Positions 3,287-28,184 of a stretch of 64,000 nucleotides of DNA are shown piece by piece. Source of the DNA: an uncultured Ectothiorhodospiraceae bacterium (GTDB lineage Bacteria; Pseudomonadota; Gammaproteobacteria; UBA9214); contig CAMYMI010000007.1 in the NCBI GenBank assembly GCA_947259415.1, positions 35,565 through 99,564 on the forward strand, read 5' to 3'. The notes beneath the pieces were generated by a model. It was not told the origin of the DNA. It saw only the letters and a list, made by a program, of their open reading frames with translations, and ran no database searches. The position numbers were made by a program, and so were the translations under genes. Each line of letters begins with the position of its first letter. Positions within the stretch are counted from its first letter, which is position 1.

Positions 3287-4654
3287 TCACATACCCTGGA
3301 ACGGAAAACCCTGGGGTGCCTTACCCTTGAGTCCACGCAGCATCTTGCCCATACCGCCCTTGGACATCTTCTTCATCATCTTGCGCATCTGGATGTATTG
3401 CTTGAGAAGCCGGTTCACATCCTGTACCTGGGTCCCGGATCCGGCCGCAATACGCCGCCGGCGTGAGCCCTTGATAACATCCGGAAAATGGCGTTCCTGC
3501 TGTGTCATGGAGCTGATGATCGCGACCATGCGACTGAGATCACGGTCATTCACCATTGACTTGGCGTTCTGTGGCAATTGACCCATACCCGGCAATTTGT
3601 CCATTAACCCGGACAAGCCACCCATGTTCTGCATCTGTTCGAGCTGTTCGCGGAAGTCATCCATGTCAAAACGCTTTCCCCTGGAGATCTTGTTGGCCAG
3701 CCGGGCGACCTTTTCCTTGTCAACCTTCTGCTCGGCCTCTTCCACCAGGCTGAGCACATCACCCATCCCCAGAATGCGCGAGGCCACCCGGTCAGGGTAG
3801 AACGGTTCCAGGGCGGCCGTCTTTTCTCCGACACCGATGAACTTGATGGGCTTGCCGGTAATCGAGCGAATTGACAGGGCCGCACCACCCCGGGCATCAC
3901 CGTCGGTCTTGGTGAGGATCACGCCGGTCAGTGGCAGGGCCTCGTTGAAGGTATGCGCGGTATTGGCCGCGTCCTGGCCGGTCATGCTGTCAACCACGAA
4001 GAGTGTCTCGACCGGCTGCAGTACCTGATGAATCTGATGGATCTCTTCCATCATTTCATCATCGATGTGAAGGCGGCCTGCGGTATCGATGATCACCACA
4101 TCGATGTGATGCCTGCGCGCATGCGCCACGGCATCCCGGGCGATAGCGACCGGCTCCTGGTCGGGATGACTCGGAAAGAATTTCGCACCGACCTCCCTGG
4201 ACAGGGTTTGCAACTGGTCGATCGCAGCCGGACGGTATATGTCACAACTCGCCAACAGTACCGACTTTTTGTGGCGTTCCTGTAACAGGCGTGCCAGCTT
4301 GGCACTGCTGGTGGTCTTGCCGGATCCCTGCAGACCGGCCATCAGGATAACCGCAGGCGGCTGGACACTGAGGTTCAGGGCATCGTTGGCCTCGCCCATG
4401 ACCCGGACGAGTTCATCGTTCACCACCTTGACCAGGGTCTGGCCCGGGGTCAGGCTTTTCAGCACCTCCTGGCCAGTAGCACGTTCCCGCACCCTGTCGA
4501 TGAAGTCCTTGACGACCGGCAGGGCGACATCGGCCTCGAGCAGTGCCATGCGGACTTCCCGCAAGGTCTCCTTGATATTGTCCTCGGTCAGCCGGCCCTG
4601 GCCACGCAGATTCTTGATGGTTCGGGAAAGGCGTTCAGTAAGATTGTCGAACAT
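3287..4654 (-). CDS. ffh: signal recognition particle protein Ffh
   Basis: NG domain with GLQGSGKTT P-loop and a Met-rich C-terminal M domain; conserved position upstream of rpsP. Confidence 0.95.
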   Translation of the reverse strand: MFDNLTERLSRTIKNLRGQGRLTEDNIKETLREVRMALLEADVALPVVKDFIDRVRERATGQEVLKSLTPGQTLVKVVNDELVRVMGEANDALNLSVQPPAVILMAGLQGSGKTTSSAKLARLLQERHKKSVLLASCDIYRPAAIDQLQTLSREVGAKFFPSHPDQEPVAIARDAVAHARRHHIDVVIIDTAGRLHIDDEMMEEIHQIHQVLQPVETLFVVDSMTGQDAANTAHTFNEALPLTGVILTKTDGDARGGAALSIRSITGKPIKFIGVGEKTAALEPFYPDRVASRILGMGDVLSLVEEAEQKVDKEKVARLANKISRGKRFDMDDFREQLEQMQNMGGLSGLMDKLPGMGQLPQNAKSMVNDRDLSRMVAIISSMTQQERHFPDVIKGSRRRRIAAGSGTQVQDVNRLLKQYIQMRKMMKKMSKGGMGKMLRGLKGKAPQGFPFQGM

Positions 4655-15232: not shown

Positions 15233-15416
15233 ACAGACCCCTTGTGGATGTGAAGCCTTCTGTCGGTGCAAAAGGCAAGGAGTTAAGAATCAGATTGTTA
15301 GAGGCCGCGCATTCTACGTGAGGCATCTGCGGGATGCAATCACCCTGCCTATCTCTGATCACGAGACACAAGATCACAGGCAGACCGTTCCTCAGGCCTG
15401 AAATTCAAGTCTCACC

Positions 15417-15590
15417 GCAGAGACGCGCGGACGCAGAGACAGGCAAGTACATGTTTTAATGAATGGGAGACAGGTTGACTTCAGATACTAGACTCTAGTT
15501 TATATAAAAGTTATATATTATTGATTTTACTGGTGTTTAGTCATATGTATATGTTTTTTATTGCTTCTCTGCGTCCTGGGCGTCTCGGCG
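15417..15590. repeat. ~23-nt imperfect inverted repeats flanking a 115-bp AT-rich core upstream of rpsF
   Basis: GCAGAGACGCGCGGACGCAGAGA (15423-15445) is nearly the reverse complement of TCTCTGCGTCCTGGGCGTCTCGGC (15561-15584); the core is about 25% GC and probably carries the rpsF promoter. Confidence 0.35.
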
Positions 15591-15604
15591 GTGAACATTC
15601 TTTG

Positions 15605-15697
15605 CGTCCTTTTTACCTCTCGGCAATTGCTCCCTGCATCACCTAAAGCGCCTACTTTTGGTGTTCTACCTCATCCTTCCCTGGAGTCGTGCGGTGA
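15605..15697. repeat. dispersed repeat, copy A (shares ~80 nt with 26440-26570)
   Basis: ctcggcaattgctccctgcatcacctaaagcgcctacttttggtgttctacc is near-identical to the copy at 26455-26512; contains a 9-bp stem / 7-nt loop hairpin; the copy overlaps the last 16 codons and stop of rlmB. Confidence 0.5.
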
Positions 15698-16452
15698 GGT
15701 TTGGTTTGGCTTCCGGTGGCCCGCTGGCGGCGCGTCTCGAACAGCAGCACCCCCGCGGCGACCGACACGTTGAGGCTCGCCACTTGCCCGGCCATGGGGA
15801 TCGCCACCAGGTAGTCGCAATGCTCGCGGGTAAGCCTCCTGAGGCCCTTGCCCTCCGCCCCGAGCACAAGCGCAAGCGGGCCAGTCAAGTCGGTGCCGTA
15901 GAGCTCGCCCTCCGCGGCATCACTGGCACCGTATATCCATATGCCGGCCTGCTTTAACAGACGCAGGGTGCGCGCCAGGTTGGTCACGCTGAATACCGGA
16001 ACCGACTCGGCCGCGCCACTGGCTACCTTGCGGACCACGGGAGTTATCCGCGCTGCCCGGTCACGCGGGACGATCAGTGCGTGCACCCCGGCCGCATCGG
16101 CAGTGCGCAAGCAGGCGCCCAGGTTGTGCGGGTCCTGGACCCCGTCAAGGACCAGCAGAAAGGCCGGCTCCTGCAGCGACTCGAGAAAGACCGGCAGGTC
16201 CTGTTCACGCGATTCATGCACAGCGTCACGCAGCGACGCGATCACGCCCTGATGGCTTGCATCCGGTAGCAACGCGTCCAGTTCACTGCGCGCTACACGC
16301 TTCACCGGAACGCCGGCCGCATCGGCCTGCTTGACGACCCGTGCGATGCGCCGGTCTTCCCGTCCCGCGGCCACCCTCAGTTGACTAACCCGCGCGGGGG
16401 CGTTAGCCAGCAGCCCTTCCACGGCGTGCAGGCCATAGACCAACTCGTTCAT
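15652..16452 (-). CDS. rlmB: 23S rRNA (guanosine2251-2'-O)-methyltransferase RlmB, with repeat-encoded C-terminal extension
   Basis: SpoU/TrmH fold preceded by an L30e-like N-domain; syntenic with rnr; the last 16 aa (KPHRTTPGKDEVEHQK) and the stop lie within repeat copy A. Confidence 0.85.
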   Translation of the reverse strand: MNELVYGLHAVEGLLANAPARVSQLRVAAGREDRRIARVVKQADAAGVPVKRVARSELDALLPDASHQGVIASLRDAVHESREQDLPVFLESLQEPAFLLVLDGVQDPHNLGACLRTADAAGVHALIVPRDRAARITPVVRKVASGAAESVPVFSVTNLARTLRLLKQAGIWIYGASDAAEGELYGTDLTGPLALVLGAEGKGLRRLTREHCDYLVAIPMAGQVASLNVSVAAGVLLFETRRQRATGSQTKPHRTTPGKDEVEHQK

Positions 16453-19552: not shown

Positions 19553-19639
19553 GCCGAGGTGGCGGAATTGGTAGACGCGCTAGCTTCAGGTGCTAGTGGG
19601 GGTAACCCCGTGGAGGTTCAAGTCCTCTCCTCGGCACCA
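19553..19639 (+). tRNA. tRNA-Leu (anticodon CAG)
   Basis: 87 nt, type II tRNA with long variable arm, anticodon loop cuUCAGgu, T-arm GGTTCAAGTCC, encoded CCA; occupies the same position as tRNA-Leu between rnr and purA in Pseudomonas. Confidence 0.9.
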
Positions 19640-25826: not shown

Positions 25827-26237
25827 ATGTGGAGGCACTTCCACCACGAGGCCGATATCGGGATTGTTGGCCTGGGTGCTACCCTGGAGCAGGCCTTTGA
25901 GCAAGCCGCCGTTGCCCTGACAGCGGTGATCACCGATCCGGAATCCGTTATCTGCCGCGAGACCGTGGTGCTGGACTGCGAGGCGCCTGATACGGAACTG
26001 CTGCTGGTCGACTGGCTCAATGCACTCGTCTACGAAATGGCCACGCGCCGCATGCTGTTCCGGCGCTTCAACGTTGAACTCAACAACCACAGCCTGCACG
26101 GTACCGCCTGCGGTGAAGCCGTGGATATCCGGCGCCACCAGCCTGCTGCCGAGATCAAGGGCGCCACCTATACGGCACTTAACATCCATGCGGACGCCGG
26201 TGGCATCTGGCATGCTCAATGTGTGGTTGATGTCTAG
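25827..26237 (+). CDS. archease (RtcB activator)
   Basis: [31 protein letters not shown] matches the archease N-terminal signature (HxxHTADIGI...LEEAF). Confidence 0.8.
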
Positions 26238-26373
26238 CCCGAAAAGGGGGTAGCGCCACTGCTGTCCCATTTATTTCAATTGAATCCAGCGCAAGCACCT
26301 CAGCATACTCTCTAAAAGTTGAAATAATAATGGATCAGAGACATGAATGCTGTCCATGACGTTCGGGTAAGAT

Positions 26374-26410
26374 CCCCTCTCCCATGAGTGGGAGTGAGGC
26401 AGGGAGAGGG
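26374..26410. repeat. strong hairpin (9-bp stem ccctctccc/gggagaggg, 18-nt loop) in the archease-rtcB spacer
   Basis: Seen directly; part of a 516-bp non-coding, structured spacer. Confidence 0.5.
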
Positions 26411-26439
26411 TTGATAAATCATGCTGTTAAGAAACTTCG

Positions 26440-26596
26440 TTTCTCACCCCTCATCCTCGGTAACTGCTCCCTGCGTCGCCTAGAGCGCCTACTGTTGGTG
26501 CTCTACCTCCTGCATGGCCCAGGCCAGCCTCTCGACCGGTTCCCGGTCTCACCTTCTCCCTGCAGTCGTAACCTTCTCCCCTTGAAGGGGAGAAGG
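26440..26596. repeat. dispersed repeat, copy B (plus terminal perfect hairpin ccttctcccc-ttgaa-ggggagaagg)
   Basis: Core at 26455-26512 is near-identical to copy A; a 42-nt segment is inserted relative to copy A; ends with a 10-bp perfect hairpin at 26572-26596. Confidence 0.5.
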
Positions 26597-26753
26597 AATT
26601 AACGATACAGCAGTGTGTCAGCACCATTTTCTTGTTTCGATATGGATGCTGCGAGCGAGGCACGAGAAAAGGGCATCGATACCTTTATTCGATGTGCGGG
26701 CTAAACTTAGAACAGGACATGTTTAATTCTGCAGCTATGCGCGGGCACCACCC

Positions 26754-28184
26754 ATGGACACCGCACAACTGACCCGCACCTCGGATTACGAGTGGCGTAT
26801 CGAACCGCAGGGTGCCATGCAGGTACCGGGGATCATATTTGCCAGCGAGGACCTGGTGAGGGCCATGGACGACAAGGTTCGCGAACAGGTCTGCAACGTG
26901 GCCACCCTGCCCGGCATCGTCAAGGCCTCCTACGCCATGCCGGATGCCCACTGGGGCTATGGCTTTCCCATCGGCGGGGTGGCTGCCTTTGATGCCGACC
27001 AGGGCGGAGTCGTTTCCGCCGGGGGTGTCGGTTTCGATATTTCCTGCGGCGTACGCACCCTGCACACCGGCCTGAAACGGCCTGATATCGACGCGGTCAG
27101 GGAACGTCTGGCTGACGCCCTGTTCCATACCATCCCGGCGGGTGTCGGCAGCACCGGGCGCATCCACCTGGACGAGGCCGGCATGGACGCCATGCTGAAC
27201 GGCGGTGCCCGCTGGGCGGTAAAGCGCGGCTGGGGTTACCGCGAAGACCTGGAGCGTGTCGAGGAACACGGCTGCATGGATGGCGCCCGGGCGGAGAACG
27301 TCTCCGAGCGCGCCCGCAAACGCCAGCGTAACGAAATGGGCACCCTGGGTTCCGGCAACCACTACCTCGAGTTGCAGGAGGTCTGCGAGGTCTTTGATCC
27401 CGAGGCGGCCAGCGTCTTCGGTATCAGCCCGGGCGATGTCGTAGTCAGCATCCATTGCGGCTCGCGCGGACTGGGCCATCAGATCGGGACGGAGTTCCTG
27501 AAATCGATGGTGATCAAGGCACAGCAGTACGGCATCACCCTGCCGGACCGCGAACTCGCCTGTGCCCCGATTGACTCGGATACCGGTCAGGCCTATCTCG
27601 GCGCCATGCGCGCGGCCATCAACTGTGCCCTTGCCAACCGCCAGATAATCACCCACCTCACCCGCGAGGTATTCGAGCGGATCATCCCGGCGGCCACGCT
27701 GGAACTGCTCTACGACGTGTCACATAACACCTGCAAGGTGGAGGAGCATGTCATAGACGGCAACCCGCAACGCCTGTATGTCCATCGCAAGGGTGCGACG
27801 CGCGCCTTCGGACCCGGTCACCCCGATATCCCGGAGGACCTGCGCTCCATAGGCCAGCCAGTGCTGATCGGGGGCTCCATGGGGACCGCCTCGCACATCC
27901 TGGCCGGCACCCGACAGGGCGAGGCCCTGTCGTATTCATCGGCCTGTCATGGCGCCGGTCGTGCCATGAGCCGGCGCCGGGCCTACAAGCTCTGGAAGGG
28001 TCGCCAGCTGGTCGACAGCCTGCAGGAGCAAGGCATTCTGATTCGCAGTCCGTCCTCGCGCGGCGTGGCCGAGGAGGCACCGGGAGCCTACAAGGACGTC
28101 GACGCGGTGGTCGATGCCGCCGACGCGGCGGGCCTGGCGCGCAAGGTGGCGAAGCTGAAGCCACTGGCCTGCATCAAGGGCTAG
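26754..28184 (+). CDS. rtcB: RNA-splicing ligase RtcB (3'-phosphate/5'-OH RNA ligase)
   Basis: 476 aa, metal-binding His/Cys (MPDAHWGYGFPIGG, SSACHGAGR), archaeal/eukaryote-like RtcB type. Confidence 0.95.
   Translation: MDTAQLTRTSDYEWRIEPQGAMQVPGIIFASEDLVRAMDDKVREQVCNVATLPGIVKASYAMPDAHWGYGFPIGGVAAFDADQGGVVSAGGVGFDISCGVRTLHTGLKRPDIDAVRERLADALFHTIPAGVGSTGRIHLDEAGMDAMLNGGARWAVKRGWGYREDLERVEEHGCMDGARAENVSERARKRQRNEMGTLGSGNHYLELQEVCEVFDPEAASVFGISPGDVVVSIHCGSRGLGHQIGTEFLKSMVIKAQQYGITLPDRELACAPIDSDTGQAYLGAMRAAINCALANRQIITHLTREVFERIIPAATLELLYDVSHNTCKVEEHVIDGNPQRLYVHRKGATRAFGPGHPDIPEDLRSIGQPVLIGGSMGTASHILAGTRQGEALSYSSACHGAGRAMSRRRAYKLWKGRQLVDSLQEQGILIRSPSSRGVAEEAPGAYKDVDAVVDAADAAGLARKVAKLKPLACIKG

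Follow-up and report, generated by a model that had tools for sequence, protein, structure and literature searches.

The locus analysed here raises the question of what kind of repeat has come to lie across the 3' end of rlmB, and what it has done to the encoded protein. The window, by which we mean the whole stretch of DNA analysed (64,000 nt of contig CAMYMI010000007.1 from an uncultured Ectothiorhodospiraceae bacterium), contains two similar stretches, copy A at the end of rlmB and copy B upstream of rtcB, which a first-pass annotation made from the sequence alone had singled out as a dispersed repeat. The comparisons described below suggest that both are probably non-autonomous, nested and very small mobile DNA modules. 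Loci drawn into these comparisons are cited by L number where they need to be told apart, and the features of the window are collected in Table 1.

A repeat search of the 64-kb window returned positions 15619-15672 and 26456-26509 as a direct pair of 54 nt, ungapped and 87% identical. The two stretches are a genuine repeat, since the degenerate 52-mer proposed for them matched exactly these two places and had no match in 100 shuffled sequences. Downstream of a 42-nt indel the similarity resumes and continues to ..AGTCGT in both copies, as had been noted. Both copies are in the same orientation on the plus strand, and nhmmer searches with family profiles gave no third copy across the 64 kb. The extent first given for copy A, 15605-15697, was slightly too wide: the similarity covers 15619-15690 (72 nt) and 26456-26569 (114 nt), with a core that begins at 15619 rather than at 15622. 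A repeat unit of about 90-130 nt was not upheld; the unit is instead a core of 47-48 nt, and the window copies are nested composites.

A 25-nt core pattern was present on 24 contigs of 15 gammaproteobacterial genome assemblies, at most three times per genome and between unrelated flanks. The carriers were Methylobacter, Methylovulum, other Methylococcaceae, Ectothiorhodospiraceae and unclassified gammaproteobacterial metagenome-assembled genomes (MAGs), and a profile search added copies. The 3' 24-mer CTACCTCCTGCATCCNTGCAGTCG was found on 10 IMG/VR viral contigs and on more than 120 metagenome contigs, the latter a lower bound. Pseudoalteromonas chromids carry the 3' module too, and it lies within the pglX (BREX) open reading frame (ORF) on plasmids of Salmonella and Moellerella and in 2 out of 5426 complete E. 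coli genomes. These many further copies bear out the earlier proposal of a dispersed insertion-type repeat of the kind of miniature inverted-repeat transposable elements (MITEs) or repetitive extragenic palindromes (REPs). The commonest form, a mini element of 47-48 nt represented by 94 distinct sequences, reads TCGGCAACTGCTCC(N)TGCGTTGCT-CTACCTCC-TGCATCC(N)TGCAGTCG. At each end the information content climbs within 2 nt, from about 0.1 bits outside to above 1.7 bits inside; the immediate flanks are pyrimidine-rich (YYC) at the 5' end and T at the 3' end. The ends, TCGGCAAC... and ...TGCAGTCG, form no terminal inverted repeats (TIRs). Dispersed copies of one genome share private variants: all copies of WB-IL-06 read GTCGGTGCCC..GTCGA, and in ES_M_Gamma_051 the short and long forms both begin TTCGGTAAC. 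Because of this sharing, the sequences point to amplification or homogenisation within genomes.

The module consists of a first hairpin (H1), the linker CTACCTCC, and a last hairpin (H3; CTGCA-TCCN-TGCAG) that stops three bases short of the 3' end. H1 has a stem of 5-6 bp, free in sequence but complementary, and the loop YGCTCC(N)TGC. In this stem (GGCAAC/GTTGCY) five of six pairs show changes in both partners, pairing holds in 97.8% of cells, and the covariation score was matched by 0 of 500 shuffles; the stem variants were GCAAT/ATTGC, GTAAC/GTTAC, GTAAT/ATTAC, GTCGC/GCGAC, ATCGC/GCGAT and ACAAC/GTTGT. The two window copies themselves differ at AAY...RTC, which is one compensatory pair of H1. 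The H3 stem was fixed by the pattern of the largest scan and its variation is therefore under-sampled; copies found by other routes had the stems CGCCA/TGGCG, CCCACA/TGTGGG, CCTACA/TGTAGG and GGCCACA/TGTGGCC, with the same TCCN loop. An obligatory closing helix formed by the flanks, which would make a three-way junction, was rejected, as only 13.6% of copies lay above the 5% control tail.

Relative to the mini element, both window copies contain an extra block of 22 nt, H2 (CRCCTARAGCGCCTACTNTTGG), between GCRT and TGYT. Since H2 is also found alone, in unrelated contexts in L054 and L114 and inside an IS91-type gene in L161, where its removal restores ..RKVF↓TLQ.. (arrows mark the point of insertion throughout), it is a separate micro-module nested in the core. 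The 42-nt insert in the H3 loop of copy B recurs in L013, L016, L017 and L018, and the 3' hairpin region of copy A is of the variant CCTTCCCTGGAG type, which L003 shares. The hairpin with a 9-bp stem and 7-nt loop described in the first-pass annotation is made of H2 and the adjoining core; it is indeed perfect in copy B, with one G-U pair, and imperfect in copy A. It showed no compensatory changes, the copies being too alike and their few changes one-sided, and its consensus over about 25 copies has an A.C mismatch that is repaired in copy B. The suggestion that copy B is closer to the source holds in that copy B departs less from the family consensus than copy A does, but its perfect hairpin reflects a private A-to-G change and not the ancestral state. 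Counts of G.U against A.C gave no indication of the transcribed strand.

The two sites in the window were compared with those of relatives. The rlmB-rpsF spacers of L028 (RlmB 93% identical), L029 and L030 contain REP-like units and no element, and the archease-rtcB spacers of L163 and L166 (RtcB 82-83% identical) are likewise without it. Insertions could also be reconstructed within genes. In the IS91-family transposase gene of L113, GSSIT is followed by a 47-nt module and then by YRIAVGP in another frame, where L161 reads HSITYRIAIGP without interruption. In two further IS91-type genes a 47-nt module lies between ..WAMLIARI and YETFPLACP (L052) and a 48-nt module between ..RIIACI and EDPAVI (L120); L139 has an 18-nt H2-like insert at the codon boundary used by the L120 module. 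The murF gene of L118 has one module of 48 nt nested in another, at CTACC↓TCCTGC; nested modules and further repeat DNA (L118 2130-2320) together add about 65 aa in frame that solved MurF structures do not have. This insert is located between the N-terminal and middle Mur-ligase domains. The plasmid-encoded PglX is 8 aa longer than PDB 8c45, exactly at the module. The in-frame module in pglX (..NADDCMDAGGRATQDAKADN..), which lies in a loop of the protein, was found in L027 3986-4028 (Salmonella plasmid NZ_CP133280.1), in Moellerella NZ_CP093250.1 and in E. coli ZF31 and ZF34; because the module is otherwise absent from the 5426 complete E. coli genomes, its distribution suggests that pglX was acquired from a carrier lineage.

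In every reconstructed insertion the inserted DNA was TCGG...GTCG and the target was unduplicated. A search for target-site duplications (TSDs) at all offsets with k=2-8 gave matches in at most 5 of 113 copies, all of them in heptamer-repeat contexts. The base at position -1 was C in 91 of the 113 copies and that at -2 a pyrimidine in 95, and YYC alone was enriched. The reconstructed targets were TACC↓T, CATC↓T, CTTC↓G and TACC↓T. The usual site is YYC↓T; very often it is the tip or middle of a lineage-specific REP-like repeat, and now and then it is in an ORF. Such units are split as TTCTTTGCGTCC↓..↓GCGTCTTTGCGGTGAA in the Ectothiorhodospiraceae type and as CTTCGTG↓..↓TTCGTGGTGAA in the Methylobacter type; further split repeats were of the CCCTCACCC/CCCTCTCCC type and of the Pseudomonas-like type GTGGGAGGGGCTT↓..↓AGCCGCGA. 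Flank-to-flank complementarity is enriched, in a minority of copies only, and is a landing preference for palindromes, not a part of the element. The REP-like units are made of direct hepta- or octamers ending in GGTGAA, of the form TCTCTGCG..TCTCGGCGGTGAA in the window lineage (window 15565-15597 and the flanks of L005, L016-L018, L059 and L081) and CTTCGTG..CTTCGTGGTGAA in Methylobacter (L008, L015, L022, L087 and L091). Five diverged IS91-family (Zn_Tnp_IS91/Y2_Tnp) genes were seen among the loci, in L052, L113, L120, L139 and L161 and possibly also in L105, each broken by at least one module, at four positions; they are either pseudogenes that served as neutral targets or a pointer to a functional connection.

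A rival reading is that the copies are strict REP or REPIN elements spread by a cognate RAYT (REP-associated tyrosine transposase). The copies are indeed short, intergenic and hairpin-forming, and their complementary strand has GTAG directly before H1 (..GGAGGTAG-AGCAAC..GTTGCC), as in GTAG-headed REPs; this GTAG also belongs to the conserved linker GGAGGTAG. RAYTs are, moreover, present in Ectothiorhodospiraceae, for example in Thioalkalivibrio (PMC3116915). However, the copies are overwhelmingly singletons rather than inverted doublets, and the inverted pairs that occur (L008, L023 and L048) are 0.8-1 kb apart around ordinary genes, thpR in L008 and etfB in L048, with no RAYT. No RAYT-like ORF was present in the roughly 150 loci: a YafM query had no match, and the top 25 families listed for the 150 ORFs alongside the copies did not include Y1_Tnp. 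The module is also near-identical across orders, whereas REPs are lineage-specific, and it inserts into local REP-like repeats that themselves differ by lineage. A strict REP/RAYT system is accordingly an improbable explanation.

The favoured reading of the copies as nested mobile modules builds on what the insertions show: a discrete non-coding unit enters DNA precisely at YYC↓T without TIR or TSD, and other short modules, the 22-nt H2 and the 42-nt H3-loop insert, enter the core in turn, which accounts for the 70 nt of copy A and the 112 nt of copy B. As the module has no coding capacity, an enzyme supplied in trans would be needed to mobilise it. A tentative proposal for its movement, which we hold to be possible rather than probable, is that it is transposed as single-stranded hairpin DNA by an HUH-type tyrosine transposase (IS200/IS605-TnpA, RAYT-like or IS91/Y2-like). 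This proposal is made because the stems are conserved as structure, the ends are hairpins (the foot of a hairpin at the 5' end, a hairpin plus 3 nt at the 3' end), TIR and TSD are absent, and the pyrimidine flank is short and fixed. Several points weigh against the mobile-module interpretation. No RAYT or Y1 gene was seen among the loci and no mobilising enzyme was found; the five IS91-type genes are insertion targets, not demonstrated partners, and are too diverged to define termini that could be compared with the module ends. As a target signal, YYC↓T falls short of the 4-5 nt that IS200/IS605 or IS91 recognise. Copies between co-directional genes show a slight preference for one orientation (36:20, p=0.044), which would also follow from insertion into the lagging-strand template. 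Finally, the near-identity across orders and the TCC that is invariant in both loops, next to a free base, could just as well result from selection on an RNA function or on protein binding. A screen by regular expressions for solo left and right ends bracketing a gene was noisy, and its candidates, L100 and L045, proved to be extra module copies.

At rlmB the element supplies the end of the reading frame. The tail of the window RlmB reads QTKPHR followed by TTPGKDEVEHQK and the TAG stop, the latter parts from the complementary strand of copy A, with the stop in the H2 loop. It had been claimed that the final 16 codons and the stop are repeat-encoded; the last 12 codons and the stop do lie within copy A, but the residues before them are outside the element. 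RlmB homologues with 70-86% identity are 247-259 aa long and end in ..RRQRxxGx, relatives with 81-86% identity stop at 250 aa, and a comparison of C-termini confirmed that this tail is absent from related RlmB proteins. CAA replaces the TGA of L030 both in the window gene, which encodes 266 aa, and in its two nearest relatives (93% and 87% identical; 265 aa), and in all three the frame continues through QTKPHR into a REP-like unit. The extra residues of the L028 RlmB, QTKPHRRDAKDAERT, derive from a REP-like unit; a translated REP-like unit corresponds to the RRDAKDAE-type tail of this protein (P0001). The idea that an insertion remodelled the 3' end of rlmB is therefore only partly sustained: the element does provide the end of the frame, but the loss of the stop is common to the window and its two closest relatives. 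Because these relatives share the loss and read into the REP-like unit, the ancestral stop was lost before the element arrived, and the element later replaced the sequence met by the frame. The rlmB frame now runs through the REP-like unit into the element until the stop in the H2 loop. The share of copy A in RlmB is incidental, and the tail, which is unconserved even among the three closest sequences, is for that reason probably tolerated rather than functional.

The conserved hairpins could also belong to an RNA. That the copies are paralogous genes of a trans-acting small RNA, as had been considered, would fit the three stable hairpins predicted (z = -2.8 to -4.4 against shuffles) and the strong sequence conservation across taxa. 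Against this, neither copy A nor copy B has a sigma-70-like promoter or an intrinsic terminator (copy B follows the terminator-like hairpin of archease, and copy A lies upstream of the AT-rich rpsF promoter region), family members occur in both orientations, some inside ORFs or nested in one another, they have no conserved genomic neighbours, and the syntenic sites of relatives are empty. Rfam 15 gave nothing at the element at the gathering score; at E<=10 the two window copies gave one chance snoRNA match, sR2 (E=7.5), touching copy A, and eight mini-form loci gave no element match at E<=1. A small-RNA family is on this evidence highly improbable.

A second RNA interpretation, which can coexist with DNA mobility, is that the module is primarily a functional RNA cassette, putatively bound by CsrA/RsmA, whose copies titrate CsrA or bring mRNAs under Csr control. 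The complementary strand of every module reads ..CUGCA-NGGA-UGCAG-GAGGUAG..GCA(N)GGAGCA.., or in a subfamily CAGGAUGCC, CAGGACGCC or CAGGAAGCC. When transcribed, it would offer three A(N)GGA sites: the hairpin CUGCA-NGGA-UGCAG, a single-stranded CAGGAGG, and the loop GCA(N)GGAGCA or, in the subfamily, CAGGA(U/C/A)GCC. The CsrB repeat is CAGGA(U/A/C)G and the consensus selected in vitro (SELEX) for CsrA is RUACARGGAUGU with GGA in a hairpin loop (PMC7652899); the module motifs match both, and some copies, in L100 and L045, are exactly UACAGGGAUGUA or UACACGGAUGUA. Both loops keep TCC/GGA almost without exception, whereas the stems and the base beside it are variable. In L045 at least six such hairpins stand in tandem (3929-4380), co-directional with both flanking genes, and 64% of copies between co-directional genes (36 vs 20, p=0.044) are GGA-sense. 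Another short module, X1 (below), likewise has CAGGAUG and a GGGA-loop hairpin. Yet 36% of these copies have the opposite orientation, and the sense copies lie closer to the stop codon before them (median 93 nt) than to the start codon after them, which is atypical of 5'-leader sites. The module has no promoter or terminator of its own, no GacA/UvrY box was seen, and no Csr/Rsm covariance model matched; the L045 array gave at E<=10 no more than a chance-level match to RsmY (E=3.8). H2 has no GGA, the 42-nt insert displaces the H3 tetraloop context, and relatives lack the element at both window sites. We regard a functional RNA cassette as unlikely, and give the same low weight to its combination with mobility, in which the modules would be selfish mobile cassettes with putative high-affinity CsrA/RsmA sites in their loops (a CA-NGGA-UG tetraloop hairpin, CAGGAGG and GCA(N)GGAGC). 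The likeness to CsrA sites is a resemblance, not a demonstration.

The L045 array is a 450-nt intergenic stretch of TCCN (NGGA) tetraloops with varied stems and one inverted pair, and resembles a Csr/Rsm sponge RNA on the strand of the flanking genes. X1 (TGCGCATCCCTGCGCCCGCGGCATACCGTTCATCCTG) occurs beside the core module and in tandem in L105 2390-2500 and, on the minus strand, at about 632-669 of L139; it combines a TCCC-loop hairpin with CATCCTG, which is CAGGAUG in the complementary strand. The mini module of Pseudoalteromonas is part of a larger composite repeat, a longer conserved intergenic unit (L025 1380-1640, L026 1400-1660), of which about 90 nt upstream (..GCTTAATTAARTGA..TATTTAGKTGTT) are common to L025, L026, L074 and L130 and about 70 nt downstream to L025 and L026; L074 and L130 match in the 5' flank only.

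Among 150 flanking ORFs no neighbour protein recurred more than three times and no transposase was among the families listed, and none of the neighbouring genes of the window recurs beside other family copies. ORF calls in the loci were crude and several cases inside ORFs are start-codon artefacts; those checked individually were murF, pglX, the IS91 genes and rlmB only. Three contexts involve RNA repair: thpR flanked by modules in Methylobacter psychrophilus (L008 3925-4887), a module near thpR in an Ectothiorhodospiraceae MAG (L005 5145-6450), and archease/rtcB in the window (25827-28184). A link was rejected, as no further case emerged when about 150 loci were searched by tblastn with RtcB, archease and ThpR, and the archease-rtcB spacers of relatives are without the element; this neighbourhood is probably due to chance. 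A spliced mini-intron of the bulge-helix-bulge (BHB)/RtcB type was also rejected: the murF and pglX modules are read through in frame, the IS91 genes are merely frame-broken, and the flanks are unrelated. The contig with the closest rtcB relative (91%) begins 231 nt upstream of rtcB, within the spacer that in the window holds copy B (L162 1-231), which is consistent with repeats breaking metagenome assemblies. In the rlmB-rpsF spacer, REP-like units (TCACCGCAGAGACGCGCGGACGCAGAGA and an inverted copy) at 15410-15597 bracket about 125 bp of AT-rich DNA with two minus-strand promoter-like sites upstream of rpsF. This layout is kept in L028, L029 and L030, where the AT-rich sequence has diverged; the bracketed DNA may be an island of conserved promoters, or an element of its own bounded by the repeats. 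The sole Rfam or ARAGORN match in the window was a tRNA-Leu(CAG) at 19553-19639.

Table 1. Positions in the window of the two composite copies, their nested parts and adjoining features.
Feature	Position	Strand	Remarks
Copy A, composite TCGG...GTCG, 70 nt	15620..15689	+	48-nt core and nested 22-nt micro-module; family boundaries
H2 micro-module (22 nt) nested in copy A (CACCTAAAGCGCCTACTTTTGG)	15640..15661	+	Loop contains the rlmB stop (CTA on the plus strand, 15652-15654)
rlmB coding sequence, 266 aa	15652..16452	-	Codons 255-266 and stop (15652-15690) from copy A; codons ~251-254 (15691-15702, ..KPHR) from REP-like unit
Left half of REP-like unit split by copy A (TTCTTTGCGTCC and spacer)	15598..15618	+	Unsplit units in L030
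Right remnant of the split REP-like unit (GCGGTGAGG)	15691..15699	+	rlmB reads ..PHR
Two intact REP-like units, inverted (15410-15440 and 15565-15597)	15410..15597		Context, outside the element
Copy B, composite TCGG...GTCG, 112 nt	26457..26568	+	Core, H2 and 42-nt insert; between archease (25827-26237) and rtcB (26754-28184)
H2 micro-module (22 nt) nested in copy B (CGCCTAGAGCGCCTACTGTTGG)	26477..26498	+	
42-nt insert in the H3 loop of copy B	26515..26556	+	Takes the place of the short tetraloop context; stem CTGCA/TGCAG intact
Hairpin repeat CCCTCTCCC...GGGAGAGGG, unrelated, upstream of copy B	26375..26411		Context only
Hairpin CCTTCTCCCC-TTGA-AGGGGAGAAGG, unrelated, immediately downstream of copy B	26571..26597		Context only

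If the mobile-module reading is correct, Gammaproteobacteria carry mobile DNA units of 22 and 47-48 nt that nest in one another, home to the tips of other repeats and can be tolerated in frame in essential genes. To our knowledge, mobile units of this size class have so far been documented mainly in cyanobacteria. Such modules would remodel protein ends and loops, as in the RlmB tail, MurF and PglX; they would also create spurious ORFs and mislead annotation, and may break metagenome assemblies. Their movement would provide a handle on a possibly unrecognised transposition activity. The CsrA-site look of the loops offers the testable idea of selfish DNA rewiring post-transcriptional regulons. 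Were the modules in fact CsrA cassettes, their spread would seed Csr control or titration across the genome, even within the mRNAs of murF, pglX and rlmB, and tandem arrays such as L045 3929-4380 would be raw material for Csr-type sponge RNAs in lineages without known ones.

The family was finally set beside known systems. Like classical MITEs, the modules are small, non-coding and multi-copy, and are present or absent between relatives, but TIR and TSD are absent. With derivatives of IS200/IS605 and elements of the IS91/Helitron type they share the lack of TIR and TSD, hairpins at or near the ends (subterminal at both, as in the IS200/IS605 type) and insertion beside a short fixed sequence; as in Helitrons, the first bases of the module are TC and its last hairpin stands 3 nt before the 3' end. 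In contrast, it is 10-100 times smaller than known derivatives of either group and its target is YYC↓T only, and unlike in IS91/Helitron elements the 3' end is GTCG rather than CTRR and the targets are not GTTC/CTTG. The module thus fits derivatives of IS200/IS605 or IS91 partly. REP, BIME and REPIN sequences are similar as short intergenic hairpin repeats with a modular mosaic structure, no TIR or TSD, GTAG beside a hairpin on one strand, and single-strand HUH chemistry as the likeliest route; they differ in that the module does not form inverted doublets, is conserved across orders, has no RAYT in its loci and targets local REP-like repeats.

Rickettsia palindromic elements (RPEs) are reportedly about 100-150 bp long and confined to Rickettsia. 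They resemble the module as selfish repeats found in frame in protein genes, to which they add peptide segments (here in MurF, PglX and the RlmB tail), whereas most module copies are intergenic and RPEs are larger and limited to that genus. Compared with Csr/Rsm sponge RNAs (CsrB, RsmY/Z), the modules have repeated A(N)GGA in short hairpin loops and linkers, in part identical to CAGGA(U/A/C)G and to the SELEX consensus, but they have no promoter or terminator of their own and no covariance-model match, and they are dispersed singly, in both orientations and inside ORFs. Six strings of the 3' module, taken on both strands, were found in no paper of the library searched, and searches on CsrA with MITEs or GGA motifs and on Methylococcales with REPs gave no description of the element. 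The small dispersed repeats (SDR) of heterocystous cyanobacteria (Nostoc), said to be 21-27 nt long, are in behaviour the nearest systems known to us, together with REP/BIME mosaics and REPINs and, as regards the in-frame copies, RPEs: they too are very small mobile repeats (22 and 47-48 nt here) that nest in each other and in other repeats, are hairpin-prone, insert precisely without target duplication, and have no known enzyme. They belong to another phylum and are unrelated in sequence, and the present family differs further in its two-hairpin core with conserved TCC loops and its in-frame copies in essential genes. The repeat family described here is apparently undescribed so far, and its behaviour is of a known sort, that of ultra-small non-autonomous mobile repeats.

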